A DNA stretch of 46,837 nt from a phage, in sequence record PZ502447.1. One strand, given 5' to 3'. Below are positions 3,189 through 45,818 of the stretch, piece after piece. The translations under genes were made by a program, and so were the position numbers. Within the stretch, counting starts at the first letter, position 1, and the number at the start of each line of letters is the position of its first letter. The notes beneath the pieces are model-generated. The model searched no databases and was not told the DNA's origin. It was given only the letters and a program-made list of their open reading frames with translations.

Positions 3189-4127
3189 CTAGTAGGTAAT
3201 GCCTTTCATTACTGCCATCGTCAGAGGACGATATAAAATCAAACCTGTAGCCTTAGAGGTTACGGGGTACTTAAAGTGCAAGTCCTTAGGTTGACCAGGA
3301 AGCACATTGGTAGCCTCTGGAATCTCGATAGACATATTGAGCGGGTTCTTCTCAAATGCCATGGCAGCCTTACCACCTGCGCCATCGTAGTTATCCAGGA
3401 ACTGAAGATAACGCAGATTGATACCAGAGTTGTTGGTAGCGAACAGCTGAGCGTAACTGATAGAGGTGTTGGGAACCAGCTCTTGCATCAGGCGGCGAGC
3501 GGAAGCAGGCAGCAAAATATCAGTTGCGGTGTGAGTGCCATTAGTCGAAGTCTCGATTGCGTCAATAAGTGCTGTGATATCGGTCATGGCGGCAGCTGCG
3601 GAGTTCCACGTACCAGCAACAACGTTGTTGATGTTAGGATGGTTGAATACGCTAGGAATTCCGTGCGGAGCGGAACCAGACCAAACCAGTTTATCCAGCA
3701 GGTTGTCGTGCGCCTCGAAAGCCAGAGCCTGTTTTCGAGTTGACAGTGATTGACCAGTAGCAGCGCCAGCCTTGATTTCGTCAGTAGAAATCAGGAATGC
3801 GTTACCGAAACGGAACACTTTACCCTGTTTCTCAGTCATGAAAGCATCAACCAGCGGCAGGTCGTCAGAGTAATCAGCGATAATCTGAGCAATACCAACG
3901 CCATTAAATTCTGGATATTCGAAATACTTCGCGTGACCAGGAATTTCATTGGTTACAGGGAAGATATTAACAACGGAGTTGTCCGCATATTCTTTTTCGT
4001 AAGCGCGATTCAGAGTAGCCGCAAGCTGCTTAACGGTCCAGATACCAGCGGCATCAGCTTTCTCTACGCCCATTTGCTCGAGGTGAGCGGTGATTTTTGC
4101 TTGTTCTGCATCAAATTTAATGGCCAT
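3189..4127 (-). CDS. major capsid protein
   Basis: 312 aa ORF with ATG start and AAGGAA SD, flanked by terminators (as expected for a highly expressed gene), downstream of the scaffold gene; composition typical of HK97-fold capsid proteins. Confidence 0.8.
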   Translation of the reverse strand: MAIKFDAEQAKITAHLEQMGVEKADAAGIWTVKQLAATLNRAYEKEYADNSVVNIFPVTNEIPGHAKYFEYPEFNGVGIAQIIADYSDDLPLVDAFMTEKQGKVFRFGNAFLISTDEIKAGAATGQSLSTRKQALAFEAHDNLLDKLVWSGSAPHGIPSVFNHPNINNVVAGTWNSAAAAMTDITALIDAIETSTNGTHTATDILLPASARRLMQELVPNTSISYAQLFATNNSGINLRYLQFLDNYDGAGGKAAMAFEKNPLNMSIEIPEATNVLPGQPKDLHFKYPVTSKATGLILYRPLTMAVMKGITY

Positions 4128-6626: not shown

Positions 6627-7860
6627 TGATTGTTACCTCTGTCTCAATTGAACCTTCACCAATCTTAACCTCAGGGGCTAATGCGCGCAAGGTATCTCGT
6701 GCTTCGTCTGCATCCATCACGCCGTTAGTGATAAGAGCAGTAATTGAATCAACGTTATTCTTCAGTATTTCAGCGCGGTCTTTCTTCGATTCCTGAGCTA
6801 GAGGGTTAAACTCAACTGACCATTCTTGCTCGGTTGTGACGAACGGGATTAAGAACCCAAGAACTGGAAGTAGCTCTTCGTTACGCTTGCGGTCAATCAA
6901 CTTATGGAATGTCTCTAGCGCTGTGTTTTGGCTTGATGACAACCCGCCAACGTTACGACCTTTGAGAATGATTTCATGGATACCGCTCAGAGCAACAATT
7001 CTGTCGAACTTCTTATCGAGGAATCCATCAATCCCACCAATATCCGAGTTAAGAACGCTGTACTCTTCAGCTTCAGCGTCGATACCAATCGCGCGACCAA
7101 CGCCAGAGTTATCATCAACCTGGGCAAGCCTCAACCTGGCCGCACCAAAACCTTCCGCGTCGTCACACAGTTCAGCAAGGCCTTTAGCCTTCCACACCGC
7201 CTGCTGCTTGCGGCGCAATAACTGAGTTGCCAGTTTCTCACACGTCTGATAATCCTTGATTGATTCAAGCAGGTCAGGAACCAGAACGCTAGCACCCCAC
7301 CCGTCATTACCGCGACGCAATGAACTAGGAATCTTCTCGCCATCCATAATGTGAACTCGCGAGTAGTGCACATCATAAAACATGGCGCCACCTTCTGGCG
7401 TGATGCGGTACGTTAATGGCTTACCGAATCGCACATTGCGAGGGTTTTCCTCCTTAGTCTGAACTCTTACCTGGCTACGCTCATAAACGCGAAGTGATTC
7501 AAGTTCCGCGCCTTCACGTACCGGGCTAGTTAGCGCACGATTGTCCTTAACGATAGCCACAATTGCAGAGCCGCCAAATAACCTCGCCCATGACCATGCG
7601 TCAGAGATTGACTCGTTAACCTTCAGGTAATCCCACCTGGACCAGAATTCACCTTCGTCATCAATACCATCGATATGGAAACCTGCGGCGATTGCTGTCT
7701 CCGGTATGGTGTCGACGATGCGGCGTACAATTGAGTTTGATGCGTACAGTGAATCAGCGAAAGGAGGTGTAAGATACGTGTTGCCAAAGTGCCCGTAAAT
7801 CTCGCTACCATCACTGGAGCCACCAAGAAATTGCGTGGCGTATGAATCTGCTTTTACCAT
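6583..7860 (-). CDS. portal protein
   Basis: About 425 aa ORF downstream of the terminase large subunit; start moved to ATG MVKADSY (GGAG SD) because the ORF-track start lies inside the upstream terminator hairpin. Confidence 0.75.
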   Translation of the reverse strand: MVKADSYATQFLGGSSDGSEIYGHFGNTYLTPPFADSLYASNSIVRRIVDTIPETAIAAGFHIDGIDDEGEFWSRWDYLKVNESISDAWSWARLFGGSAIVAIVKDNRALTSPVREGAELESLRVYERSQVRVQTKEENPRNVRFGKPLTYRITPEGGAMFYDVHYSRVHIMDGEKIPSSLRRGNDGWGASVLVPDLLESIKDYQTCEKLATQLLRRKQQAVWKAKGLAELCDDAEGFGAARLRLAQVDDNSGVGRAIGIDAEAEEYSVLNSDIGGIDGFLDKKFDRIVALSGIHEIILKGRNVGGLSSSQNTALETFHKLIDRKRNEELLPVLGFLIPFVTTEQEWSVEFNPLAQESKKDRAEILKNNVDSITALITNGVMDADEARDTLRALAPEVKIGEGSIETEVTINETSEDPLEVPADN

Positions 7861-7896: not shown

Positions 7897-7918
7897 TAGT
7901 TTAGCATAGCTTTTATGG

Positions 7919-9915: not shown

Positions 9916-10422
9916 TTACGCTCTCGTATTTGGGTAGCCTTTATTTTCAGAGCCATGATTTTCATGATATCCGTTCAATTTGTCATACTGTGACCTTGCC
10001 AATGCAGCCTCCTCTATAGTGTCCTTGTAGCATATGAAGACTGTTTTACCAAACTCCATAGCCTGAACAAGCCATCTATTCTCTCTTTTGCACCAGCTTA
10101 CACCGTTTATTCCGCTTTTATTTCTTGATGATAGTGATCTGTTATTTGAGTTCTCTTTATTGCTTACTAACCTTAGGTTCTCTATTCTATTGTCACTTCT
10201 ATTTTGGTTTATGTGATCTATGTACATGCCTTTAGGGATTGATCCATTGTGCATCTCCCACACCACCCTGTGACACCTGTATGCTTTTTGTCTATACTTT
10301 AGTATCACATAGCCAAATTTATCAACTCTTCCAGCCACCTCTCCAACCTTTGATACATTTGCTACTTTTACCTTTCTTATTAAAAGCCCGTCTCTATATT
10401 CAAAAATATCATGCCAATTCAT
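9916..10422 (-). CDS. HNH homing endonuclease (AP2-HNH type)
   Basis: 168 aa; HNH core IDHINQNRSDNRIENLR; N-terminus MNWHDIFEYRDG shared with the HNH at 28006; strongly AT-rich; inserted between the terminase subunit genes. Confidence 0.85.
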   Translation of the reverse strand: MNWHDIFEYRDGLLIRKVKVANVSKVGEVAGRVDKFGYVILKYRQKAYRCHRVVWEMHNGSIPKGMYIDHINQNRSDNRIENLRLVSNKENSNNRSLSSRNKSGINGVSWCKRENRWLVQAMEFGKTVFICYKDTIEEAALARSQYDKLNGYHENHGSENKGYPNTRA

Positions 10423-10618: not shown

Positions 10619-11143
10619 TTACAGCTTACCAATCACAGACTCAAGCGCTTCCTTCATCGTATCTACGTCGTTAGCTGAAGAGTTGTTGCTGATAGTAATC
10701 TCCTGCGGCTTGTCGATTCCAAGCTCTTTGGAAATCATGCCCGGGTTAACGATGCCAGATGCAGCCAACTGATATTTCTGCTCACGAATCACTGAATCAA
10801 TGAACGCAATCACCTCATCATAACCAGCAGACTTTCGCCATTTCTCGATGGCGCCATGGGTAACACCGCAGTAAAGGCAGAAACCTGTTAGCGTGAAGAC
10901 TCGCGGCTTATGCACCAGGCTCTCGGTCACTACACCCTGGAAGCTAGCCGTCTCAATTGCCTTGATCGCCTGACTCTCTGCCCATGAGAAGTATTTCACA
11001 GCCAGGTCAAATAGCTGCTCTGGTGTCATGATTCGGTTTTTGGCTAGCGTTGTAATGTCTGAGTACTTTTTATTGTACATGGCTTTAAAGTTGCCAGAGC
11101 GGACCTTTTCTTGCGCCTGACTGGTGAAGTTTTCGTCTTTCAT
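10619..11143 (-). CDS. terS: terminase small subunit
   Basis: 174 aa, ATG with GGAGG SD; helix-turn-helix-like segment FTLTGFCLYCGVTHGAIEKW resembling small-terminase DNA-binding domains; located upstream of the terminase large subunit. Confidence 0.6.
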   Translation of the reverse strand: MKDENFTSQAQEKVRSGNFKAMYNKKYSDITTLAKNRIMTPEQLFDLAVKYFSWAESQAIKAIETASFQGVVTESLVHKPRVFTLTGFCLYCGVTHGAIEKWRKSAGYDEVIAFIDSVIREQKYQLAASGIVNPGMISKELGIDKPQEITISNNSSANDVDTMKEALESVIGKL

Positions 11144-11190: not shown

Positions 11191-11214
11191 AAAAAAAGCC
11201 CTCAAGAAGAGGGC
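11191..11214 (-). terminator. intrinsic terminator separating early small-gene block from packaging genes
   Basis: Minus-strand hairpin GCCCUC-loop-GAGGGC followed by a U7 run (plus-strand A-run 11191-11197). Confidence 0.55.
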
Positions 11215-11267: not shown

Positions 11268-11456
11268 TTACTTTCGCTCACGAACGTAAGCTACTAGGAA
11301 TTTGTGGTAATCCGGGTCGGCACCAGACATTACCTTAACTTTCGCTACTGCTTCCTCTGAGGACTTAGCAGTAACCGACGCGATAAATTCTTGAGTGCAA
11401 CTTTTGCAACTACGACCCATTAATCGGATTGAAAGCTTAACATCCCAGAGCTGCAT
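11268..11456 (-). CDS. hypothetical protein
   Basis: 62 aa ORF overlapping the stop of the upstream gene; Cys-containing. Confidence 0.4.
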   Translation of the reverse strand: MQLWDVKLSIRLMGRSCKSCTQEFIASVTAKSSEEAVAKVKVMSGADPDYHKFLVAYVRERK

Positions 11457-11649
11457 TTTTTATCTTCCCGCTCTGATTGCTATAGTTTTGAGTTTCTCTT
11501 TCAAGCTCGAGATAACCTTTAATATCCGCGCTAACTGAAACCCCGCCAATCACACCCTTTAAGCATTTATGTTCACGGTCAAGTGTTGCGTTGAATTTTT
11601 GGGAAGTGCCGCTTTCAATATCTTTTACGATGATTGTTACTTTTTTCAT
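11437..11649 (-). CDS. hypothetical protein
   Basis: 70 aa ORF, ATG with GGGGGA SD, immediately downstream of the tRNA. Confidence 0.5.
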   Translation of the reverse strand: MKKVTIIVKDIESGTSQKFNATLDREHKCLKGVIGGVSVSADIKGYLELERETQNYSNQSGKIKNAALGC

Positions 11650-11680: not shown

Positions 11681-11756
11681 TGGTGTTCCGCACTGGACTC
11701 GAACCAGTAACTAAGACTTAGGAGGTCTTTGCGTTATCCTGTTACGCCAGCAGAAC
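11681..11756 (-). tRNA. tRNA-Arg (anticodon CCU)
   Basis: 76 nt on minus strand folds as a cloverleaf: acceptor GUUCUGC/GCGGAAC (one G-U), U8, D-stem GCGU/ACGC with GG in the D-loop, anticodon stem AAGAC/GUCUU, loop CUCCUAA (U33, CCU, A37), T-arm ACUGG-UUCGAGU-CCAGU, discriminator A, encoded CCA. Confidence 0.8.
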
Positions 11757-11944
11757 AAATCCTTGAGTAGCGATTGCGCTATTGAAGGATTGCTGGTTAC
11801 GCTTCCAGCGTCGAGTTTCTCGACCGATTTCGCCATATACGCTGCTTAGTGAGCTATGGACTTTGTGTTGCGCTCCGTGCGCCGTTGCCACTTGGTGGCC
11901 TCGTCTGTCTACAGTTGTTAATGTACCAGCCAGGGTTAGATGTG

Positions 11945-12145
11945 TCAACTTACTCTTTCGAATTTCCCATAATTCTGGTCATACGGGTAGTCAATGCTCA
12001 CCAATTCGCCATTATCGCTGTAGCAGAATACGTGGCCAGTCTTCGATACCTTTTCGACCTGGTAATCGCATCCATCCATGAAGTCATCCGATGCCGCCTT
12101 TGTGCACTTGATAGCATCGCCTTTCTTAATAATTTTATTCATCAA
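11945..12145 (-). CDS. hypothetical protein
   Basis: 66 aa ORF; start overlaps the upstream stop (ATGA). Confidence 0.45.
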   Translation of the reverse strand: MMNKIIKKGDAIKCTKAASDDFMDGCDYQVEKVSKTGHVFCYSDNGELVSIDYPYDQNYGKFERVS

Positions 12146-15362: not shown

Positions 15363-15884
15363 CTATTTAGTCTCCTTAATCATTTCTTGGTATGCGTTAA
15401 TCATTGATACTGCACCATTAAGTTCATCACCTTCAAGACCAGCGACGCTTGGTGATAGTTTTAACAATCGAGCCTTGAACCTTTCAATGGTAGCCGCCTC
15501 CTTCTCTTGCTCTGCTTTGCTTCTTGAGCCGGATTTTACAGCGCCAGGAACCAGGCTAAGTGATGCGCAGTATGTCTCACTCTCGCCCTCAAAGTCGGTA
15601 AAACTAAGTGAGAACCTTGAGCGCACGTCAGCCGCCTTAATCTCAGGCATTCGGCTTACGGTGTTTGAAACGTATGACGCTTTTAGTTTTGGCATGTGGT
15701 ATTCACCACCAGGTAGAACCTCCTCACCACTTAGCGATACGAACGTCTCACGACTCATGCCGAAGTATTGACGAGCAATCATGGTCACAGGGACTGTGCA
15801 CACTTTGTCTTCTGACTTGAGCGCCTGACTCGCCATGTATCGAATGATTTCACCCAAACTTACTGCTTCTTTATGTTCTGACAT
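15363..15884 (-). CDS. hypothetical protein (first leftward early gene)
   Basis: 173 aa ORF, ATG with AGGAG SD, first gene transcribed leftward from the large control region. Confidence 0.55.
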   Translation of the reverse strand: MSEHKEAVSLGEIIRYMASQALKSEDKVCTVPVTMIARQYFGMSRETFVSLSGEEVLPGGEYHMPKLKASYVSNTVSRMPEIKAADVRSRFSLSFTDFEGESETYCASLSLVPGAVKSGSRSKAEQEKEAATIERFKARLLKLSPSVAGLEGDELNGAVSMINAYQEMIKETK

Positions 15885-21540: not shown

Positions 21541-22088
21541 CTATTTATTACGTGCATTACCAAAGCAGAGGTTCCATCAATATCACCATCTACAACATGA
21601 ACGTCAATTTCTCTTGCGCAGACACCGCGAATGTAGGAGCGGCTATCTCCATCAAAAGTATAGCCAGGCCTAAAAAGTCTAATCAAAGTAACTTCAACCC
21701 CTGAATCAATGAGAGTATTAATCTCGCTAGCGAAGCCACCATCAGCACAGATATAGCAACCATCACCAAGTGATTGCGCTAGCCTTTTACCGAAAACATC
21801 ATCACCAAAGACTGGCTTCATAACTGACTCACTAATCCAAATCATAAATTCACGAACCGTCATTCCACCAAGAAATTCATGTGGTGATTCTTTGTACTCT
21901 CGGTCATCGTAATTCTTAATAAATTCATCAAACTCATCGCTTGATAGTATTCCTTTTGCAACATTAAACATTGGTGACTTGAATGAAACCTTATCCTTGC
22001 AAATTCCAAGATTAACAATGATATCTGCAACTGTATCTTTTCCAGCACCAGGGGGTGCATTAAGGATGATTAACTTTTTCATTTTCAC
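21528..22088 (-). CDS. deoxynucleoside monophosphate kinase-like P-loop kinase
   Basis: 186 aa; P-loop NAPPGAGKDT and overall resemblance to T4 gp1 dNMP kinase (GKDT..AD, RPG motifs). Could alternatively be a polynucleotide kinase domain. Confidence 0.55.
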   Translation of the reverse strand: MKMKKLIILNAPPGAGKDTVADIIVNLGICKDKVSFKSPMFNVAKGILSSDEFDEFIKNYDDREYKESPHEFLGGMTVREFMIWISESVMKPVFGDDVFGKRLAQSLGDGCYICADGGFASEINTLIDSGVEVTLIRLFRPGYTFDGDSRSYIRGVCAREIDVHVVDGDIDGTSALVMHVINSTNC

Positions 22089-22558
22089 TCTCCGTGAGAT
22101 TCGCAGTCTTTAGGTGGTACTTTATATTCACAAACTGACATTACAGTATATCCGCAATTCCTTAGGTGACTGATAACATTTGGATTATCCTCAAAGATTA
22201 TTACATTTTTCTTATCACCTTTACATAAATCATTTAACCACTTTTCTTTAATTATGTAGTCTTTGCTATTGTCAAATCGACTCCTCATATATATTCCATC
22301 ATACTCAATATCATTACACTGAAGCCATTCAAGCGTCATACATTCGACTTCGTCACTTCTTGAAGTCATGATGTAAACTGGCGATAACTCAGCTAACGCA
22401 TTCATCATGTTTATCATTGGAATTATCGGTGAATCTCCAGAACAGGCTCTATTGTAATCACTCCAACTTGAAGTCAAGTGAAGGTCACTAGATGGTAAGA
22501 GGTGGCTTCTATGTTCATTGTTAGCAATAGTTCCATCAATATCAAACACGTAAATCAT
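22085..22558 (-). CDS. HAD-superfamily phosphatase
   Basis: 157 aa; N-terminal FDIDGT motif (DxDGT, HAD motif I); start overlaps the kinase gene. Confidence 0.6.
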   Translation of the reverse strand: MIYVFDIDGTIANNEHRSHLLPSSDLHLTSSWSDYNRACSGDSPIIPMINMMNALAELSPVYIMTSRSDEVECMTLEWLQCNDIEYDGIYMRSRFDNSKDYIIKEKWLNDLCKGDKKNVIIFEDNPNVISHLRNCGYTVMSVCEYKVPPKDCESHGE

Positions 22559-36878: not shown

Positions 36879-39800
36879 TTACCACACTCCAACTACAACC
36901 CTTCCACCATTCGGTAAATTAACTGTAATTCCATTATTGTTAATCTGAACAGTGTTGTTGGTTCCGTTAAACGCAAAGTTGCCGTTACTTGCGTACAGAC
37001 TACCCCTTACAGTTGCATTGTTAAGTTCCGCACTGCCTGACTTATCAATGGCCCAACCCTGAGAACCAGCCACGTAGTTATTAGATTGAATCCGGTTACC
37101 AATCTTCGCGTTAGTGATTGAACCATCCTGAATCACTGCGCTTTGAATGAATACCTGATTACCTTCAACTACGAAAGGCAATGACCACTGACCGGATCCA
37201 GAGCTAATGCCGTTACTGATTGCGAACCTGTTAGCATCGAAAATGAACTGACTACGAACGTTGCCACCAGATCCGGTTAGTTCCATGCTCATCCCTGAAT
37301 TGTACTCAACCCCATTGTAAGTAAGACCCAGCTTAATGCCGTACTGCGCACCAATTGAATCAGCTGTAACGTAAGTATCCAGCTTCTCATTTAAAGCAGC
37401 TTCATTCTCACCGAGCCTTGCAGATAAAGCAGTGTCCGCAGTGGTCCTTGCTTGCGTTTCTTCCGCTAGCGCCGTATCAATCCTTGTCAACGAAGCCACA
37501 ATCTCATCATCAATCTGCGCTTTAAGCTGCGTCAGAGCCTCTACGCGAGCCATTTCTTCGTCGGCGATAAGATTCACAGCCTGAACAAATTCGGCCTTCC
37601 TCTTGCCGTTTTCCTTCGTCATTCTACGCACGTCACCATCATTAGCCAGGGCGTTCTCAATTATTGATTCCGCTTGCGCCTGAATAGCTCCGTTTGACTC
37701 AATGGCATTCTGTTGGAGATACTTGAACCCATCTGAGTTTTCTATATCAACCTTAATATCACCAATGATTGACGACACATCATCGCTTGCCATACCCCTT
37801 ACAAAATCAGTCCATGGTGAGACGTTACCAATCTTGTCAATCAGTCGCGCCCTGTACCAGATAACCTTTCCTGCCGGTAATGTAGTGTGCCAATACTCGT
37901 AACCCGGGTAAGGAACTAGCGTTAACAAACTGGCGTTCTCTGGTGAGTAAGTACCATCACCATTGTCGGCTACTTGCTGCAATTCAGTGTATGACGTATC
38001 GGCTGAGTTTTCAGGGAAACCCCACTTAACCCTAATGCCAAATATTTCATCATCTGAAGCTGTGATTACCGTAGGCTCAGACGGCGTTCCAATTTTACCA
38101 GTTAGGCTTGCTGAAACAATGTCAGACCATGCGGATACGTTTTCAGTATCAGAAACAGCCCTCACGCGAACCTGATAAATACCAGCATAAATACCTTCAA
38201 TATCAACTTCTGTGTTTGCTGTGCGCGGTACGTTAATCCAGTTTCCGTTCTCCTTACGCCACTGTACCGTGTAAGTCTTGGCGTACTGAACTTTGTCCCA
38301 GGTGATTACCATTGTTTCAACTGATAAACCCTGCACAACCTTGCTGTAGCTGCTCACCTGAACATTTTCTGGGGCAAGTAGCGTGTCAGGTTCAACGATT
38401 GACGATGGCCTATCCTGAATGTTTACGCCGTAATCAATTTCGTCGTATTTATTCGGGTCGTACTCGACTGCCGTAATGCTGTAACCGAACGCATCGTCTC
38501 CATCGCTGTCTGCTTTTTGAATCCCGGTCACAACATATTGCTGAAGAGCAAGATTTTCCTTATCAATCGCAAATACTGTGTCAGGCTGAGGAGTAAAGCT
38601 AAACGCTGTATTAAGTTGCAGCGTCATACCATCTTCAGATACAGATGCAATGGTCCTGTACTCTGGCATTCCATCAGGCTTGTTTATTAGAATCCTGTCG
38701 CCAGCAGTAGCATCAATCTTAAATGGCACAAAAACTTGCAACCCACTTACTGACTCGATACGACCAGAAAGGTTAAGGGTGTAGTTGCTAGACCATGCCT
38801 GGTCATTAACTGCAATAACCTCACCAATCATTGGAATCATACCTTCCAGACCAGTAGTGAAACTAATAGTCTCGCTGCGAATGTTCGTCTTTAATAACCA
38901 GCGCCCGCGGCGGTTTGCCTCACTCCTGCGAGTACATCCAATAGCTGTAAGGTCGACCGGGTTGTAACCAAAACGCCTTGTTGCCTCTAACTCGAATACT
39001 GGCTCAACATCCTGTTGGTATGAGTTTTCAACGTCATCAAACTGAACGTTGGCAACCGTGTAAAGTGACTTATCGCTACCAAATGTACGGTTGAACAATC
39101 CATCAACAACGTTGTCATTGGTGAATACGTACGATGGTTGACGCGGCTTATCGACAACAATCCCTATCTGCTCGCCGTCATAGAATGTCAGCCCACGGAA
39201 GATAGAGCAAATATCACGGATTACCTGATATGCTTCAACTTTCTGCTGAATGACAACATCACACAGGTAGCGCGGCTCAACTCCACCCTTACCATCTGGA
39301 ACCATCTGGTCACAGAATTGCGCCGCCTCATACAGACCCCACTTATCAATAGTAATGCCAAGCTCTCGCTGGTCAAGTCCGTAACGCTGATTCGTCACCA
39401 AGTCGTAAAGAACCCACGCCGGGTTATTGGAATACGCCATCTTAAAGGTGCCGTTCCAGGTTCCGCTGTAAGTCCTTGTCTCTGGGTTGTAGTTAGTTGG
39501 AACGCGAATCAACTTCCACTTCTTCTTGATTGAAATCGTCGGGATTCCGTTAGGGAAGAGGTCAGAACTGAACTCAACGTAAACCAGCGCTGTAAGTGGG
39601 TAGCGGAATTTAGCATCAATTACTTCCTGATAGGTCGTAATTTGCATGTCGTTAACCAGCGTCGAACTTTCTGAATCTGCCGTGATCTTACGAACCCTCA
39701 CCAACGCACTCGAGAACTCAGCAGGAAGGTTAACCCTGATACTTCTGTCGTACCCGCTAGTTGTCTTGCCATTAGCTACTCCGCGCGTGTACTCAGTGTA

Positions 39801-40304
39801 TGTAGCGCCATCAACGGACAGGTCAATCGCATACTCGCAAGTGGTACCGTTAAGATCTCCGTTACTTTCCTGATTAATCAGACGAGGCCAAAACAGCTTA
39901 ACCCTAATTGCTGATAGCTGGGTGTTATTAACAGCAATGATGTAAGGAGTTGAGTTTTTAATCTCCCTGTTCACTTGCACTTCCGAGTTAGCACCCTCTA
40001 GCCCGGCAATGTAATCCTGACTCTGTGTGCCAGGGCGAAACTCTGCCGTTACACCCTCGTAGTTGTATGTGCCATTCTGGTTCTGTACAGGAACGTCAGC
40101 AAGGTAAAGGTCCTTTAGGGAGAATGAGCTATCAACCTCACCATCAGAAACAGCTAGCAAAACCTTAACCTTGTTTACGGATATCAGGTTATCAGGCTGC
40201 TCTACAGGTTGGTGCTGCTTTGGCTGTCCGCCCTTACTTCCATAAATCTTAATTTCTTCCGCCATATCACATAGCTCCGCATTTGTTTTGACCATTTGTG
40301 CCAT
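36879..40304 (-). CDS. central tail fibre / host specificity protein (lambda J-like)
   Basis: 1141 aa; segment NYNPETRTYSGTWNGTFKMAYSNNPAWVLYDLVTNQRYGL...DKWGLYEAAQFCDQMVPDGKGGVEPRY closely parallels the conserved region of lambda J. The first ATG lacks an SD, so the true start may be the internal ATG MAEEIK (40265) with a GGAG SD. Confidence 0.85.
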   Translation of the reverse strand: MAQMVKTNAELCDMAEEIKIYGSKGGQPKQHQPVEQPDNLISVNKVKVLLAVSDGEVDSSFSLKDLYLADVPVQNQNGTYNYEGVTAEFRPGTQSQDYIAGLEGANSEVQVNREIKNSTPYIIAVNNTQLSAIRVKLFWPRLINQESNGDLNGTTCEYAIDLSVDGATYTEYTRGVANGKTTSGYDRSIRVNLPAEFSSALVRVRKITADSESSTLVNDMQITTYQEVIDAKFRYPLTALVYVEFSSDLFPNGIPTISIKKKWKLIRVPTNYNPETRTYSGTWNGTFKMAYSNNPAWVLYDLVTNQRYGLDQRELGITIDKWGLYEAAQFCDQMVPDGKGGVEPRYLCDVVIQQKVEAYQVIRDICSIFRGLTFYDGEQIGIVVDKPRQPSYVFTNDNVVDGLFNRTFGSDKSLYTVANVQFDDVENSYQQDVEPVFELEATRRFGYNPVDLTAIGCTRRSEANRRGRWLLKTNIRSETISFTTGLEGMIPMIGEVIAVNDQAWSSNYTLNLSGRIESVSGLQVFVPFKIDATAGDRILINKPDGMPEYRTIASVSEDGMTLQLNTAFSFTPQPDTVFAIDKENLALQQYVVTGIQKADSDGDDAFGYSITAVEYDPNKYDEIDYGVNIQDRPSSIVEPDTLLAPENVQVSSYSKVVQGLSVETMVITWDKVQYAKTYTVQWRKENGNWINVPRTANTEVDIEGIYAGIYQVRVRAVSDTENVSAWSDIVSASLTGKIGTPSEPTVITASDDEIFGIRVKWGFPENSADTSYTELQQVADNGDGTYSPENASLLTLVPYPGYEYWHTTLPAGKVIWYRARLIDKIGNVSPWTDFVRGMASDDVSSIIGDIKVDIENSDGFKYLQQNAIESNGAIQAQAESIIENALANDGDVRRMTKENGKRKAEFVQAVNLIADEEMARVEALTQLKAQIDDEIVASLTRIDTALAEETQARTTADTALSARLGENEAALNEKLDTYVTADSIGAQYGIKLGLTYNGVEYNSGMSMELTGSGGNVRSQFIFDANRFAISNGISSGSGQWSLPFVVEGNQVFIQSAVIQDGSITNAKIGNRIQSNNYVAGSQGWAIDKSGSAELNNATVRGSLYASNGNFAFNGTNNTVQINNNGITVNLPNGGRVVVGVW

Positions 40305-42845: not shown

Positions 42846-45818
42846 TTAGTTGTAACCGCGCAAGAACTGATACGCTCTGCCACCCTGTTGGAATGATTTG
42901 CTGATTTCCTCAGCCACGATAACCTTAACTCCAGATTCTATCGCCTTAGCATCATTTCCGCCACCGATTCCAGAGTTTACGTTAACCGTCACACCACCAA
43001 CACTGACATTAGTACCGCCGACAACCCCACCATTAGCATAACCAGATGGCCCACCAACAGCACCTCCATTTGCATAACCGCGCATCAGCTTGTACAGATT
43101 CTTAACACCAATCCTGCTTGTAGCCTCTTTTGTGAATACAAACTCACCACGGTGAACAGTCCCAGCAGGTTGATATTTCCCGCCATCACCAGTATAACCT
43201 CCGCCAGCAAAACCAAGCGCACTACCAATTGAACCAATAGCGCCGCCAGTACCACCAAAACTACTCAGACTTGACTCAATGGCCTTAACAATTAAGAGTT
43301 GAGTCGCAATCCTGGCAATCTGTTTCAGGATCTCAACGGTAAAACTCCTGAAGTCTGCCGTGCCAGTTGTTACAAGGCTGGTGATCTGCTCGGTAATTCC
43401 GGTAAAGACGGAAGTGGTCAATTCACCAGCGATAGAGAATGCATCTGTCGCGCTCTCTGCCCAATTAGCGAAGGATGATTGCACACCAGCAAGCCAGTTT
43501 TCACGTAGCGCATCCTCTTGAGCATAGAAATTACGCCTGGCTTCTAGTAATGCCTGAAAATCAGTATCATCTACAGAACCACCTTTGTTTACCTGATTGG
43601 ATTGAAGTGCCTGAAGCTCTTTTGCTCTTTGCTTCTCCCTGTCAGATAAATTAGCAGCAAGTGAAAAATTATTTGCTTCATTTGTAATCTGCACAGTCTT
43701 CTTAAGGTTGTCATCAAGTAACTTGTTTGACCTCTCCTGAAGCACAATCTGGTCACCAAGTTCAGCCTTCTGTTTAGCCTGTTCAAGAATGATATTCTTC
43801 TGCGCAAGTAGCTTAGCCTGTGATTTTGTAAGCGTACCATCCGCTTGTCTTTGTTCAAGTATTGCAAACTTCGCTTCTTCCTGGAATAACTGCTTTCTTT
43901 CATTGCTTATTACATCATTTATCGTTCTGTGCTCTTGTAAGACCTTTAACTGAGCCTGAAGTGCAAGAACGCCAGATTCATAAGATAAAGTTAAATCCCT
44001 TTCTTCTTTTACAGCCTTTTTCCTCTCACTCCTTGCTTTCTTTATCGCATCATACTCATCGGCAAGAGCCTTCTTCCTTGCTGCAAACTCCTTATCGGTT
44101 GATGCATTATTGCCGCTAAGGTTGGTGTTATTGTTGTTCTCGACATAACCAAGCTCACCCTTCCTGATTCTCGCATCTCGCTCAGCTATGCTTTTTGCTA
44201 ACTCCTCATTTTGCTTCTTAGCTGCATCAACAATCTTTTGCTGCTCAGCGATTGCTTCATTGCCTAAATCGCCAAGTCCAGGTATTGACTGAAGTGTCTT
44301 GGTTGCTGCTATTGCAAACTCGCCCAATAGGATATCGCCGGAGTTTATTAACGACCTTATCTGCTCAATAGTCCCAGCAACAACGTCAGTTATTAAGTTA
44401 AGCGCCCCAAGCGTCCTTTTGCTTATATCATCCCAAATCTCACTTACAAACTTCCTGAAGCTATTCCATGCGCTCTCAAGAGGGTTAAGGCTTAGTGCTA
44501 CGTCTGCTAGCCTGTTTTCCATAACGTTAGCGAATAGCTCAGTAGCTGCGGTTACAGCCTCTGTTTCTCCAGCCGTCTTCCTGATATTCTCAATGTATTT
44601 CAATTGCCCAGACTGAAGGAAGTTGAACTGCTTATCGAGTGCAATCAGACCTTGAATTGGGTCATTTGTAATCTGATCAAAGTATCCAAGAATAGTTTTC
44701 GAGTCTGTTGATGTTACAGTTGCCCATTGTGCTGTCGCCTTGGTTATCTTATCTATCTGCGTAAGAGTCAGATTACCGTTTGCTACCAGGCTGTTAGCTA
44801 TCTCCTGGATAAGTCCGCGCGTGGCTAGTGTTGAACTCTCAATTCCATCAACAACCTGATTTATCTGCGCTGTCGACGTGATAGTTGAGTTGCCAACCAA
44901 TGTTATCGTTGATGCTAGTCCGCGAGTGTTCTTGTCAGCCTGATAAGCAGCAACACCAAGAGCGCCGAGGGCCAAGCCCAAAGTCCCAACAACTGCCGTT
45001 AATGGGTTAATGGCTGCCAGTGCGAACCTTGCGGTGTTAGCAATACCACCAAAGCTATCCTTAATCTGCCCACCCTGCTGAATTGCAATGAGCCAGATTG
45101 GGATGCCGCCAGCAAGAGATGTTCCGATATCTGTAATCTGAGCTGGTAGCTGTCGTATTGCTTGCTTGTACTGACCGGCGCTTAAACCTGACTTAACAAA
45201 AGCGGAGCTTTGCTTCTGTAACTGAACAGCAGATGCCTCGGCGGCCTTGCCAATCCTGTCGATAATCGGTGCCGCTTGGTCACTAACTCCGAGTTGAGCA
45301 GCCTTAAGTTGAAGTAGTTCAGTCCTTGTAAGGCTTGCTGCATTCGCCTCGTTCTCAAGAGATTGAATGAACTTTTGCGCGGCTGCTGTTGCCTTTTCTT
45401 TATCTATTGATGCCTGTAGTGCAGCTCGCCCTTCCTCGCTAAGAGCTGCTTTAGACCTGTTTAGCTTATTTATTTGAGTTTCAATAACAGAGCCAAGCCG
45501 GAAGAACTCATCATCAGGAACTATTCCAGATTCAAACGCCTTGTCTAATTCAGTTGCTGCTTTCTGAAGCTTCTGGAATTTAGCGGCAGTTGGGTCTATG
45601 ACTTGTTGAAGTGATGCGAAAGATTTGCGCTGCTCCTCAAGCTGCCTTGCGGTGTCCCTTGCTTGAGTCTTGGCTACAAGTTCGGCGTTGACGAAGCTAT
45701 TAATGCCTGTTGCAGCTTGCTCGTTTGCTTGCCTGAATTTCTGTAAGGATTGCGTACCCTTATCGACCTGAGCTACGTCGACGGCTAGCGTGATACCAGC
45801 AATTTCGTTAGTTGCCAT
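42846..45818 (-). CDS. tail tape measure protein
   Basis: 990 aa, largely alpha-helical/coiled-coil composition (Ala/Gln/Leu/Lys/Glu-rich) with a Gly-rich C-terminal region; preceded by the G/GT chaperone pair. Confidence 0.85.
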   Translation of the reverse strand: MATNEIAGITLAVDVAQVDKGTQSLQKFRQANEQAATGINSFVNAELVAKTQARDTARQLEEQRKSFASLQQVIDPTAAKFQKLQKAATELDKAFESGIVPDDEFFRLGSVIETQINKLNRSKAALSEEGRAALQASIDKEKATAAAQKFIQSLENEANAASLTRTELLQLKAAQLGVSDQAAPIIDRIGKAAEASAVQLQKQSSAFVKSGLSAGQYKQAIRQLPAQITDIGTSLAGGIPIWLIAIQQGGQIKDSFGGIANTARFALAAINPLTAVVGTLGLALGALGVAAYQADKNTRGLASTITLVGNSTITSTAQINQVVDGIESSTLATRGLIQEIANSLVANGNLTLTQIDKITKATAQWATVTSTDSKTILGYFDQITNDPIQGLIALDKQFNFLQSGQLKYIENIRKTAGETEAVTAATELFANVMENRLADVALSLNPLESAWNSFRKFVSEIWDDISKRTLGALNLITDVVAGTIEQIRSLINSGDILLGEFAIAATKTLQSIPGLGDLGNEAIAEQQKIVDAAKKQNEELAKSIAERDARIRKGELGYVENNNNTNLSGNNASTDKEFAARKKALADEYDAIKKARSERKKAVKEERDLTLSYESGVLALQAQLKVLQEHRTINDVISNERKQLFQEEAKFAILEQRQADGTLTKSQAKLLAQKNIILEQAKQKAELGDQIVLQERSNKLLDDNLKKTVQITNEANNFSLAANLSDREKQRAKELQALQSNQVNKGGSVDDTDFQALLEARRNFYAQEDALRENWLAGVQSSFANWAESATDAFSIAGELTTSVFTGITEQITSLVTTGTADFRSFTVEILKQIARIATQLLIVKAIESSLSSFGGTGGAIGSIGSALGFAGGGYTGDGGKYQPAGTVHRGEFVFTKEATSRIGVKNLYKLMRGYANGGAVGGPSGYANGGVVGGTNVSVGGVTVNVNSGIGGGNDAKAIESGVKVIVAEEISKSFQQGGRAYQFLRGYN

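Follow-up and report, generated by a model that had tools for sequence, protein, structure and literature searches.

A phage tRNA-Arg(CCU) gene upstream of the small terminase gene of a T1-like coliphage, with a probable structured leader RNA on its 5' side

We analyzed a 46,837-nucleotide stretch of phage DNA (record PZ502447.1), here called the window, which is the genome of a T1-like coliphage: a siphovirus of the Drexlerviridae, Braunvirinae-like, with AN_ECEAS, ES and TR3, all Braunvirinae, as its closest records. Its minus strand carries at positions 11681-11756 a gene for tRNA-Arg with the anticodon CCU. The best explanation of the whole, to which we assign a probability of about 0.8 on sequence evidence, is that this is a functional phage tRNA of the kind known from T1-like coliphages. 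A second element, probably a structured leader RNA, lies directly on its 5' side.

11681-11756, minus strand: tRNA-Arg(CCU) gene, 76 nt, with the CCA encoded (ARAGORN, Rfam RF00005)

ARAGORN finds a single tRNA in the 46.8-kb window; it lies on the minus strand at 11681-11756 and is called as tRNA-Arg with the anticodon CCT. The Rfam model RF00005 matches it over its full length (model positions 1-71), its 58.9 bits (E=2.6e-10) exceeding the gathering score of 29. An earlier interpretation made from the letters alone (the sequence-only reading) had placed a 76-nt cloverleaf with anticodon CCU here; its coordinates, length, strand and anticodon all prove exact, and the check by tRNA-prediction tools that it had suggested ends with two tools concurring on Arg(CCU) at a score above the cut-off. 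The sequence, GUUCUGCUGGCGUAACAGGAUAACGCAAAGACCUCCUAAGUCUUAGUUACUGGUUCGAGUCCAGUGCGGAACACCA, can be read directly as a canonical cloverleaf. Its acceptor stem has 7 bp, including one U.G, and the sequence together with the cmscan alignment places the universal tRNA nucleotides U8, A14, G18G19, U33, the T-loop UUCRA and G53-C61. The anticodon is C34C35U36, the T-loop reads UUCGAGU, and the discriminator A73 is followed by the encoded CCA; the D-loop, AACAGGAUA, puts an A at position 20. The identity elements of the E. coli arginyl-tRNA synthetase (ArgRS) are A20, C35, U36 or G36, and A or G at position 73. Because A20, C35, U36 and A73 are all found in the phage tRNA, we predict that it can be charged by the host ArgRS.

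The codon that this tRNA would read is in heavy demand. In greedy, uncurated open reading frame (ORF) calls covering 89% of the genome, AGG occurs 166 times (12.0 per 1000 codons) and, at 26% of arginine codons, is the commonest of them; AGA occurs 114 times (8.2 per 1000). A sample of 64 annotated E. coli K-12 genes has AGG at 1.2 per 1000, which is 1.9% of its arginine codons, and AGA at 1.8 per 1000. AGG is thus used about ten times more in the phage than in the E. coli sample, which supports, as far as sequence can, the earlier proposal that the phage keeps its own copy of a tRNA for a codon rare in the host. A count by gene class had also been suggested, and it shows AGG to be twice as frequent in late and structural genes (16.0 per 1000, or 35% of arginine codons) as in other genes (8.0 per 1000); AGA is flat, at 8.0 against 8.6 per 1000. 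The richest in AGG are tail genes, with 21 of 51 arginine codons in 36879-40304 and 23 of 41 in 42846-45818.

In relatives, the same slot holds either tRNA-Arg(CCU) or tRNA-Arg(UCU). Genomes with CCU prefer AGG, with AGG/AGA values per 1000 codons of 12.0/8.2 in the window, 13.0/9.1 in TR3 and 12.7/10.4 in JK06, a second CCU lineage whose counts are approximate and whose record is known for frameshift errors. All five UCU genomes prefer AGA, for example at AGA/AGG values of 11.7/8.5 per 1000 in Rtp and 11.8/7.0 in Msk, and T1, which has no tRNA, makes the lowest use of both (7.5/5.3). At aligned, conserved arginine sites of orthologous genes, AGG in the CCU genome stands opposite AGA in the UCU genome 17-39 times and the reverse is seen 4-10 times (binomial p of 1.5e-5 to 0.035 across five CCU-UCU genome pairs); pairs sharing an anticodon are symmetric, at 14/20, 9/9 and 10/11. 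Between the window and T1, AGG in the former stands opposite CGN in the latter 32 times, and the reverse is seen twice. By these sequence comparisons, anticodon and codon usage have moved together in the T1-like family, a joint shift that is a prediction of a working decoder. They also make a quantitative case in which the anticodon of a single phage tRNA and codon usage shift jointly within one family.

Some observations weigh on the other side. The genome comparisons are not phylogenetically independent and effectively involve two CCU lineages, and the codon data would fit either causal direction, from tRNA to usage or from usage to tRNA. The major capsid gene (3189-4127, minus strand) has no AGG and no AGA among its 7 arginine codons, implying that host-rare codons are still avoided where speed matters most; given highly expressed genes of this kind, relief of a bottleneck by the tRNA may be only partial. 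T1, moreover, copes without a tRNA at its AGG frequency of 5.3 per 1000, implying that the tRNA is dispensable for the T1-like family.

The gene might instead serve mainly in counter-defense, replacing or decoying host tRNA-Arg that has been cut or depleted by a tRNA-targeting nuclease, such as a retron effector, an anticodon nuclease or a colicin-D-like toxin. Phage tRNAs that neutralize tRNA-targeting defenses are documented, to judge from the references given within PMC12916289, and host tRNA-Arg is among the species cut by retron Eco2 in T5 infection (PMC12916289). The window also encodes a protein with a PNKP phosphatase domain (22085-22558, minus strand; HAD_PNKP, 54.6 bits), relatives annotate a T4-like polynucleotide kinase and Rtp an Stp-like peptide, and these proteins hint at past conflicts over RNA damage and repair. 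A nuclease-evading tRNA, however, should differ from the host isoacceptor in its anticodon loop, and here the loop is CUCCUAA both in the phage tRNA and in argW, the host tRNA-Arg(CCU); with identical loops, we see no sign of changes that would evade an anticodon nuclease. Nor does defense evasion predict a CCU/UCU switch that tracks codon usage among close relatives; T1-type phages lack any tRNA, and we know of no defense system specific to tRNA-Arg(CCU). A mainly defensive role is therefore improbable in our view, and it can in any case coexist with codon supply, the role that we favor.

Neither the tRNA nor its interpretation as a reader of rare codons is new, both having been annotated and discussed in print. 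A tRNA-Arg is annotated at the same position in many relatives' records. The Rogue1 genome paper describes an arginyl-tRNA for the rare codon AGG (PMC3496638), the AHP42/AKS96 paper one arginyl-tRNA in each genome (PMC4070988), and the SU57 paper a tRNA proposed to aid the rare codon AGA (PMC7718038). The window tRNA is identical to the Rogue1 tRNA-Arg(CCU) at 73 of 76 positions. BLAST finds no match to it in 5,426 complete E. coli genomes, and it shares 49 of 76 positions with argW, from which we conclude that it is neither a copy of a host tRNA nor a recent capture from the host. The gene is present and unannotated in AN_ECEAS (the window's nearest relative), Rtp (two loci), DTL, IME542, ZL19, FP and JK06; Rtp and DTL are described as lacking a tRNA in the MSK paper (PMC8421802), which ARAGORN contradicts. 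Two records with doubtful host labels, MG065688.1 ("Campylobacter phage A110b") and PP134917.1 ("Pseudomonas phage PsgS01F"), are T1-like coliphage genomes, and both carry leader and tRNA.

The tRNA had been described as embedded in the early block. This is only partly right: the gene lies downstream of small ORFs but at the boundary of the block, about 0.5 kb before terS, which encodes the small terminase subunit. The order along the minus strand is small ORFs, a promoter-like site, the leader, the tRNA, orf70, orf62, a terminator, terS, a gene for an HNH endonuclease and terL.

11948-11920, minus strand: predicted sigma70-type promoter, 10/12 consensus matches plus TG (consensus scan)
11437-11649, minus strand: orf70 (phrog_16862, function not known), with a Shine-Dalgarno (SD) sequence GGGGGA about 31 nt after the tRNA
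11268-11456, minus strand: orf62 (phrog_2919, function not known)
11198-11214, minus strand: intrinsic terminator GCCCUC-UUCUU-GAGGGC followed by U7, 54 nt before terS
10619-11143, minus strand: terS, small terminase subunit (GP3_package), first packaging/late gene (Pfam PF16677, 44.4 bits)

The promoter has a -35 element TTGACA (11948-11943), a spacer of 17 nt and an extended -10 element TGgTACATT (hexamer 11925-11920), from which transcription is predicted to start near 11912-11916. In every relative read, a -35/17-nt/-10 pair with an upstream A-tract stands at a constant distance from the 5' tract of the leader: TTGCAT-17-TAAYAT in Braunvirinae, TTGACC-17-TAGTAT in T1, TTGACT-17-TAGTAT in Rogunavirinae, and TTGACG-17-TATCTT or TAGGAT in distant leader types. 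At the other end of the unit, a canonical GC-hairpin terminator separates it from terS in 21/21 related loci, in 19 of them 33-88 nt before terS, and the T1 record annotates a terminator at the equivalent place. Further strong intergenic terminators stand in the late operon of the window at 7897, 4237, 3180, 35, 45857, 42463, 40341 and 36872; the T1 record annotates more than 10 in its late operon, and 18-21 terminators per genome have been reported (PMC4070988). Weak promoter-like sites occur between the terminator and terS, at 11205-11176 in the window and as a BPROM promoter in SU57. Homologues of 10619-11143 are annotated as terS in relatives, and the orf62 homologue is the first ORF past the leader in relatives without a tRNA. 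An HNH_3 homing endonuclease gene (9916-10422, minus strand; Pfam, 78.7 bits) separates the small and large terminase genes, as it also does in TR3, AN_ECEAS and Rtp. Elsewhere, at 15363-15884 on the minus strand, the window encodes a DUF7174 protein (160.6 bits).

From this arrangement we infer how the tRNA would be transcribed, processed and charged, and how it would benefit translation. Host RNA polymerase would start at the near-consensus promoter (11948-11920) and make a precursor of structured leader RNA, tRNA, orf70 and orf62 that ends at the terminator (11214-11198). RNase P would cut at the 5' end of the tRNA, whose CCA is already encoded, and the host ArgRS would then charge it, supplying decoding capacity for AGG, the host's rarest arginine codon.

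The segment on the 5' side of the tRNA (11757-11944) had been called noncoding and GC-rich, with the suggestion that it may hold further structured RNA. The last point is borne out by covarying hairpins seen in alignments and folds, and the first stands, the sole ORF not being conserved; the GC-richness is modest, at 51% G+C against 44% for the genome. We consider it likely that the segment encodes a real, conserved and hitherto undescribed structured RNA. Its layout is a 5' single-stranded tract, UGUAGACAGACGAG, followed by hairpins P1-P5 and a clade-specific hairpin P6.

11757-11917, minus strand: probable structured leader RNA (model R1, covariation); between the predicted transcription start and the tRNA it measures about 155 nt
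11887-11899, minus strand: P1, hairpin GCCAC-CAA-GUGGC; 4/5 pairs with double-sided changes within Braunvirinae
11870-11882, minus strand: P2, hairpin GCGC-ACGGA-GCGC; invariant in Braunvirinae, covarying across subfamilies
11832-11861, minus strand: P3, bipartite Braunvirinae-specific hairpin; 100% and 93% of cells paired
11810-11824, minus strand: P4, hairpin GUCGAG-AAA-CUCGAC, abutting P5; double-sided pairs 3/5 in Braunvirinae, 5/5 in the wide alignment
11792-11809, minus strand: P5, hairpin GCUGG-AAGCGUAA-CCAGC; 4/5 pairs double-sided in the wide alignment
11758-11791, minus strand: P6, long hairpin immediately ahead of the tRNA, from folding; found only in the type of the window, TR3, AN_ECEAS and IMM-001

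The leader is conserved separately from the tRNA, as judged by BLAST of the 5' flank, and the window copy folds better than shuffled sequences (z = -3.0). Covariance model R1 scores 137 bits on the window at 11781-11917. Alignment A4 brings together 19 distinct Braunvirinae leaders: 97.6% of its cells are paired, and double-sided changes occur at 10 of 30 pairs. Its covariation score of 0.321 compares with 0.133 in shuffles (0/500), and when the 3' partners are shifted by 1-3 columns, only 0-1 double-sided pairs remain. The same helices are recovered by an independent MAFFT alignment with RNAalifold. G.U pairs at three positions are standard pairs on the tRNA strand only, becoming A.C mismatches on the other strand. 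A wider alignment (A5), which adds T1-type and distant members, has 96.9% of cells paired and 19 of 30 pairs double-sided, but it was fitted to the model; this counts against the proposed structure, as does the modest number of independent compensatory events. A further weakness is that plain MAFFT with RNAalifold, applied to the 5' domains of 29 leaders from all subfamilies, predicted no pairs; its alignment had put the subfamilies out of register. As for earlier descriptions, no family in Rfam release 15 matches the leader of the window or of T1 at E<=10, nor those of eight divergent loci at E<=1, and in the literature searched, which covered few subscription journals, we found no noncoding RNA (ncRNA), antiterminator or transcriptome of T1-like phages.

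The individual hairpins differ in how widely they are shared. P1 is built from GCCAC/GUGGC, CCAUC/GAUGG or CUAGC/GCUAG in Braunvirinae and from GCGC/GCGC, GCUC/GAGC or ACGG/CCGU in other subfamilies, and the stems of P2 across subfamilies are GCAGC/GCUGC, GCAUC/GAUGC, GCGGC/GCCGU and GCCAG/CUGGC. P3 has one A-U to G-C exchange and also contains G.U pairs that are standard on the tRNA strand only; T1-type and distant leaders have other hairpins in its place. Folding the 31 leader types one sequence at a time predicts P4 in nearly all of them. P5 is made from at least 8 different complementary stems, and its loop end [C/G]GUAA is kept in 30 of 31 leader types; minimum-free-energy (MFE) folds, which need no alignment, put GUAA at the 3' end of a P5-closed hairpin loop in 29 of 31 distinct types. 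At the place of P6, IME542 and ECH1 have a different sequence. In A110b (locus L019, 38637-38917) the P4-P5 module is tandemly duplicated within the leader, and the loop of the second copy is mutated to AUCAUAA.

Other pairings were considered and set aside. An RNAfold MFE of the whole precursor pairs P5 (11792-11809) with the T-arm of the tRNA (11689-11705) in an alternative structure; we treat this as chance, the shared CUGG/CCAG being confined to the window type and absent from UCU-type relatives. A tRNA-like fold of P4 and P5 was rejected on loop sizes and sequences, which do not fit anticodon or T arms. Candidates for a long-range closing helix, or for a pseudoknot joining the P5 loop to the 5' tract, were 3 bp long or not conserved.

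Could the flank instead code for protein, or act at the DNA level as a signal such as a pac site or an origin? A single ORF spans it: a 68-aa frame at 11742-11948 (minus strand), which has a TTG start and overlaps the tRNA. In the window and in AN_ECEAS no stop interrupts the frame across the leader, and coding sequences named "hypothetical protein" are annotated over the leader in ES, IMM-001, DTL and Rogue1 (Rogue1_0013; locus L007, 1063-1185). In 16 of 19 relatives, however, all three frames stop within 9-45 nt of a fixed anchor. The absence of a frame conserved across relatives makes these ORFs, that of the window as well as Rogue1_0013 and those in ES, IMM-001 and DTL, probably spurious. 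The substitutions, too, are compensatory in helices instead of codon-patterned, and large module insertions are tolerated between the helices. A DNA signal would suit the proximity to the terminase genes, but the T1 terminal repeat from pac covers 1-2800 and the element lies at 7619-7743, a distance that makes a pac-type role unlikely. Both ideas, finally, must face the G.U pairs that fit only the tRNA strand and the promoter that precedes the leader everywhere. Taken together, coding or DNA-level function is highly improbable, and we retain the reading of the flank as structured RNA.

The distribution of the leader sets it apart from the tRNA. R1 hits T1 at 7619-7743 with 32.8 bits, upstream of terS where ST58 and ST57 leave a gap, and T1 has no tRNA; 15 T1-type genomes likewise have the leader and no tRNA, and in about 20 more distant Drexlerviridae loci R1 hits lie 0.55-1.0 kb upstream of terS, again with no tRNA. 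R1 finds nothing at roughly half of the terS loci that are more distant, so "family-wide" here means most of the sampled lineages, not all. In the phages without a tRNA, the AUUCARG tail of the leader is joined directly to the SD sequence and ATG of the orf62 homologue. In the Rogunavirinae (Rogue1, Sf12, phiKP26, phiEB49 and Sd1) the leader has diverged and precedes a tRNA-Arg(CCU), with an additional tRNA-Trp in Sd1; R1, a model of Braunvirinae leaders alone, scores these leaders weakly (10-15 bits), and their homology rests on reading the sequences. A pattern search for leaders in metagenome contigs gave, among the matches listed, almost only chance hits and added no diversity. By these sequence comparisons, the leader is a separate element, older and more widespread than the tRNA.

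Across the Drexlerviridae, the slot between the leader and the first small ORF holds 0-6 tRNAs, and in phages such as that of the window the tRNA would have entered between the AUUCARG tail, which is conserved, and the first ORF's ribosome-binding site. The largest set is found in a metagenomic phage (L257, 820-1467), with six tRNAs (Arg, Ser, Ser, Asn, Trp, Met) after the P4-P5 module. Elsewhere the slot contains Trp and Arg in the Sd1 type and Arg plus a "Val(AAC)" call in the phiEB49 type (L214, 1566-1720; L216, 1262-1415), and Asn, Ser and Asp tRNAs in two distant phages (L264 and L266, about 900-1580). Past the leader and ahead of terS, the Drexlerviridae have a general landing site for tRNAs, and the leader would explain why the tRNAs of the T1-like family always land at one spot.

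Control of late transcription in T1 is, as far as we know, poorly understood, and an RNA placed between a strong promoter and a conserved terminator, ahead of the terminase genes, is an evident candidate regulator. Our best guess is a role in cis, either in transcription read-through (antitermination) or in RNA processing or stability. Retention of the leader where an inserted tRNA parts it from the ribosome-binding site speaks against an operator with a purely translational role.

One version of a cis-acting role is a put-like, protein-independent processive antiterminator. As put does in cis through the zinc-binding domain of the RNAP beta' subunit, the nascent leader would bind the transcribing polymerase and carry it past the terminators before terS and in the late operon, with the tRNA riding along on a heavily transcribed unit. 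The layout agrees: the leader begins right at the conserved promoter, the canonical terminator between leader and terS is present at 21/21 loci with more terminators further downstream in the late operon, and conservation of the leader persists despite the intervening tRNA. There is a precedent in HK022 put, which lies just downstream of promoters and acts over more than 10 kb (PMC9378689), and P4 and P5 are, like put, two abutting hairpins. The size does not agree: put has about 70 nt and two stem-loops (PMC9378689), and the leader at least four conserved hairpins in 120-300 nt family-wide. No sequence similarity to put was seen, though none was specifically tested for; the weak promoter-like sites after the terminator may make read-through unneeded, and phage terminators are often leaky by design. 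We think a put-like antiterminator rather unlikely. Were it real, the leader would make host RNA polymerase pass the terS and late-operon terminators, and its 3' end would be the preferred slot for tRNAs. Nor does the leader show a lambda-type nut site, in which a boxA of the CGCUCUUA kind lies 5' of a boxB hairpin: it contains neither CGCTCTT nor GCTCTT.

A further set of roles deserves tentative consideration, namely that the leader is a stable trans-acting ncRNA released by RNase P, a protein-bound operator for orf62 or terS, or a stabilizer of the 5' end of the transcript. Its loops ([C/G]GUAA and CGGA) and single-stranded tracts (CGUAGAC, AAUCGG and AUUCARG) are strongly conserved, and conservation that goes beyond the helices suggests recognition by a partner. 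It adjoins RNase P substrates in many genomes, and in the phages without a tRNA its tail abuts the SD sequence. On the other hand, the T1-type leader is contiguous with mRNA and has no obvious signal for 3'-end formation after it, the target or partner of a trans-acting RNA cannot be inferred from its sequence, and an operator fits poorly with retention of the leader after tRNA insertion. We return, then, to the cis-acting role, in which the leader may represent a new class of phage RNA heading the T1-like packaging/late unit; its put-like antiterminator form remains the speculative part.

Both elements can be compared with known systems. The tRNA-Arg genes of T1-like coliphages (Rogue1, JK06, AHP42/AKS96, SU57, MSK and TR1-3) occupy the same position upstream of terS and differ in nothing essential from that of the window; what is new is the quantification of codon use and a CCU/UCU switch that tracks it. 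E. coli argW has the same anticodon, an identical 7-nt anticodon loop and, like the phage tRNA, A20 and A73, whereas all of its stems differ. For the leader, the T4 tRNA gene cluster offers one parallel: it encodes small stable RNAs, rnaC and rnaD, structured ncRNAs cotranscribed with phage tRNAs and, like the leader, unassigned in function; they belong to a different phage family, and the Drexlerviridae leader occurs without any tRNA too. HK022 put offers the other, being likewise a structured RNA immediately downstream of a promoter and upstream of a terminator-bearing operon; put, however, folds into two stem-loops of about 70 nt in a temperate lambdoid phage, whereas the leader has five hairpins in the window and belongs to virulent T1-like phages.

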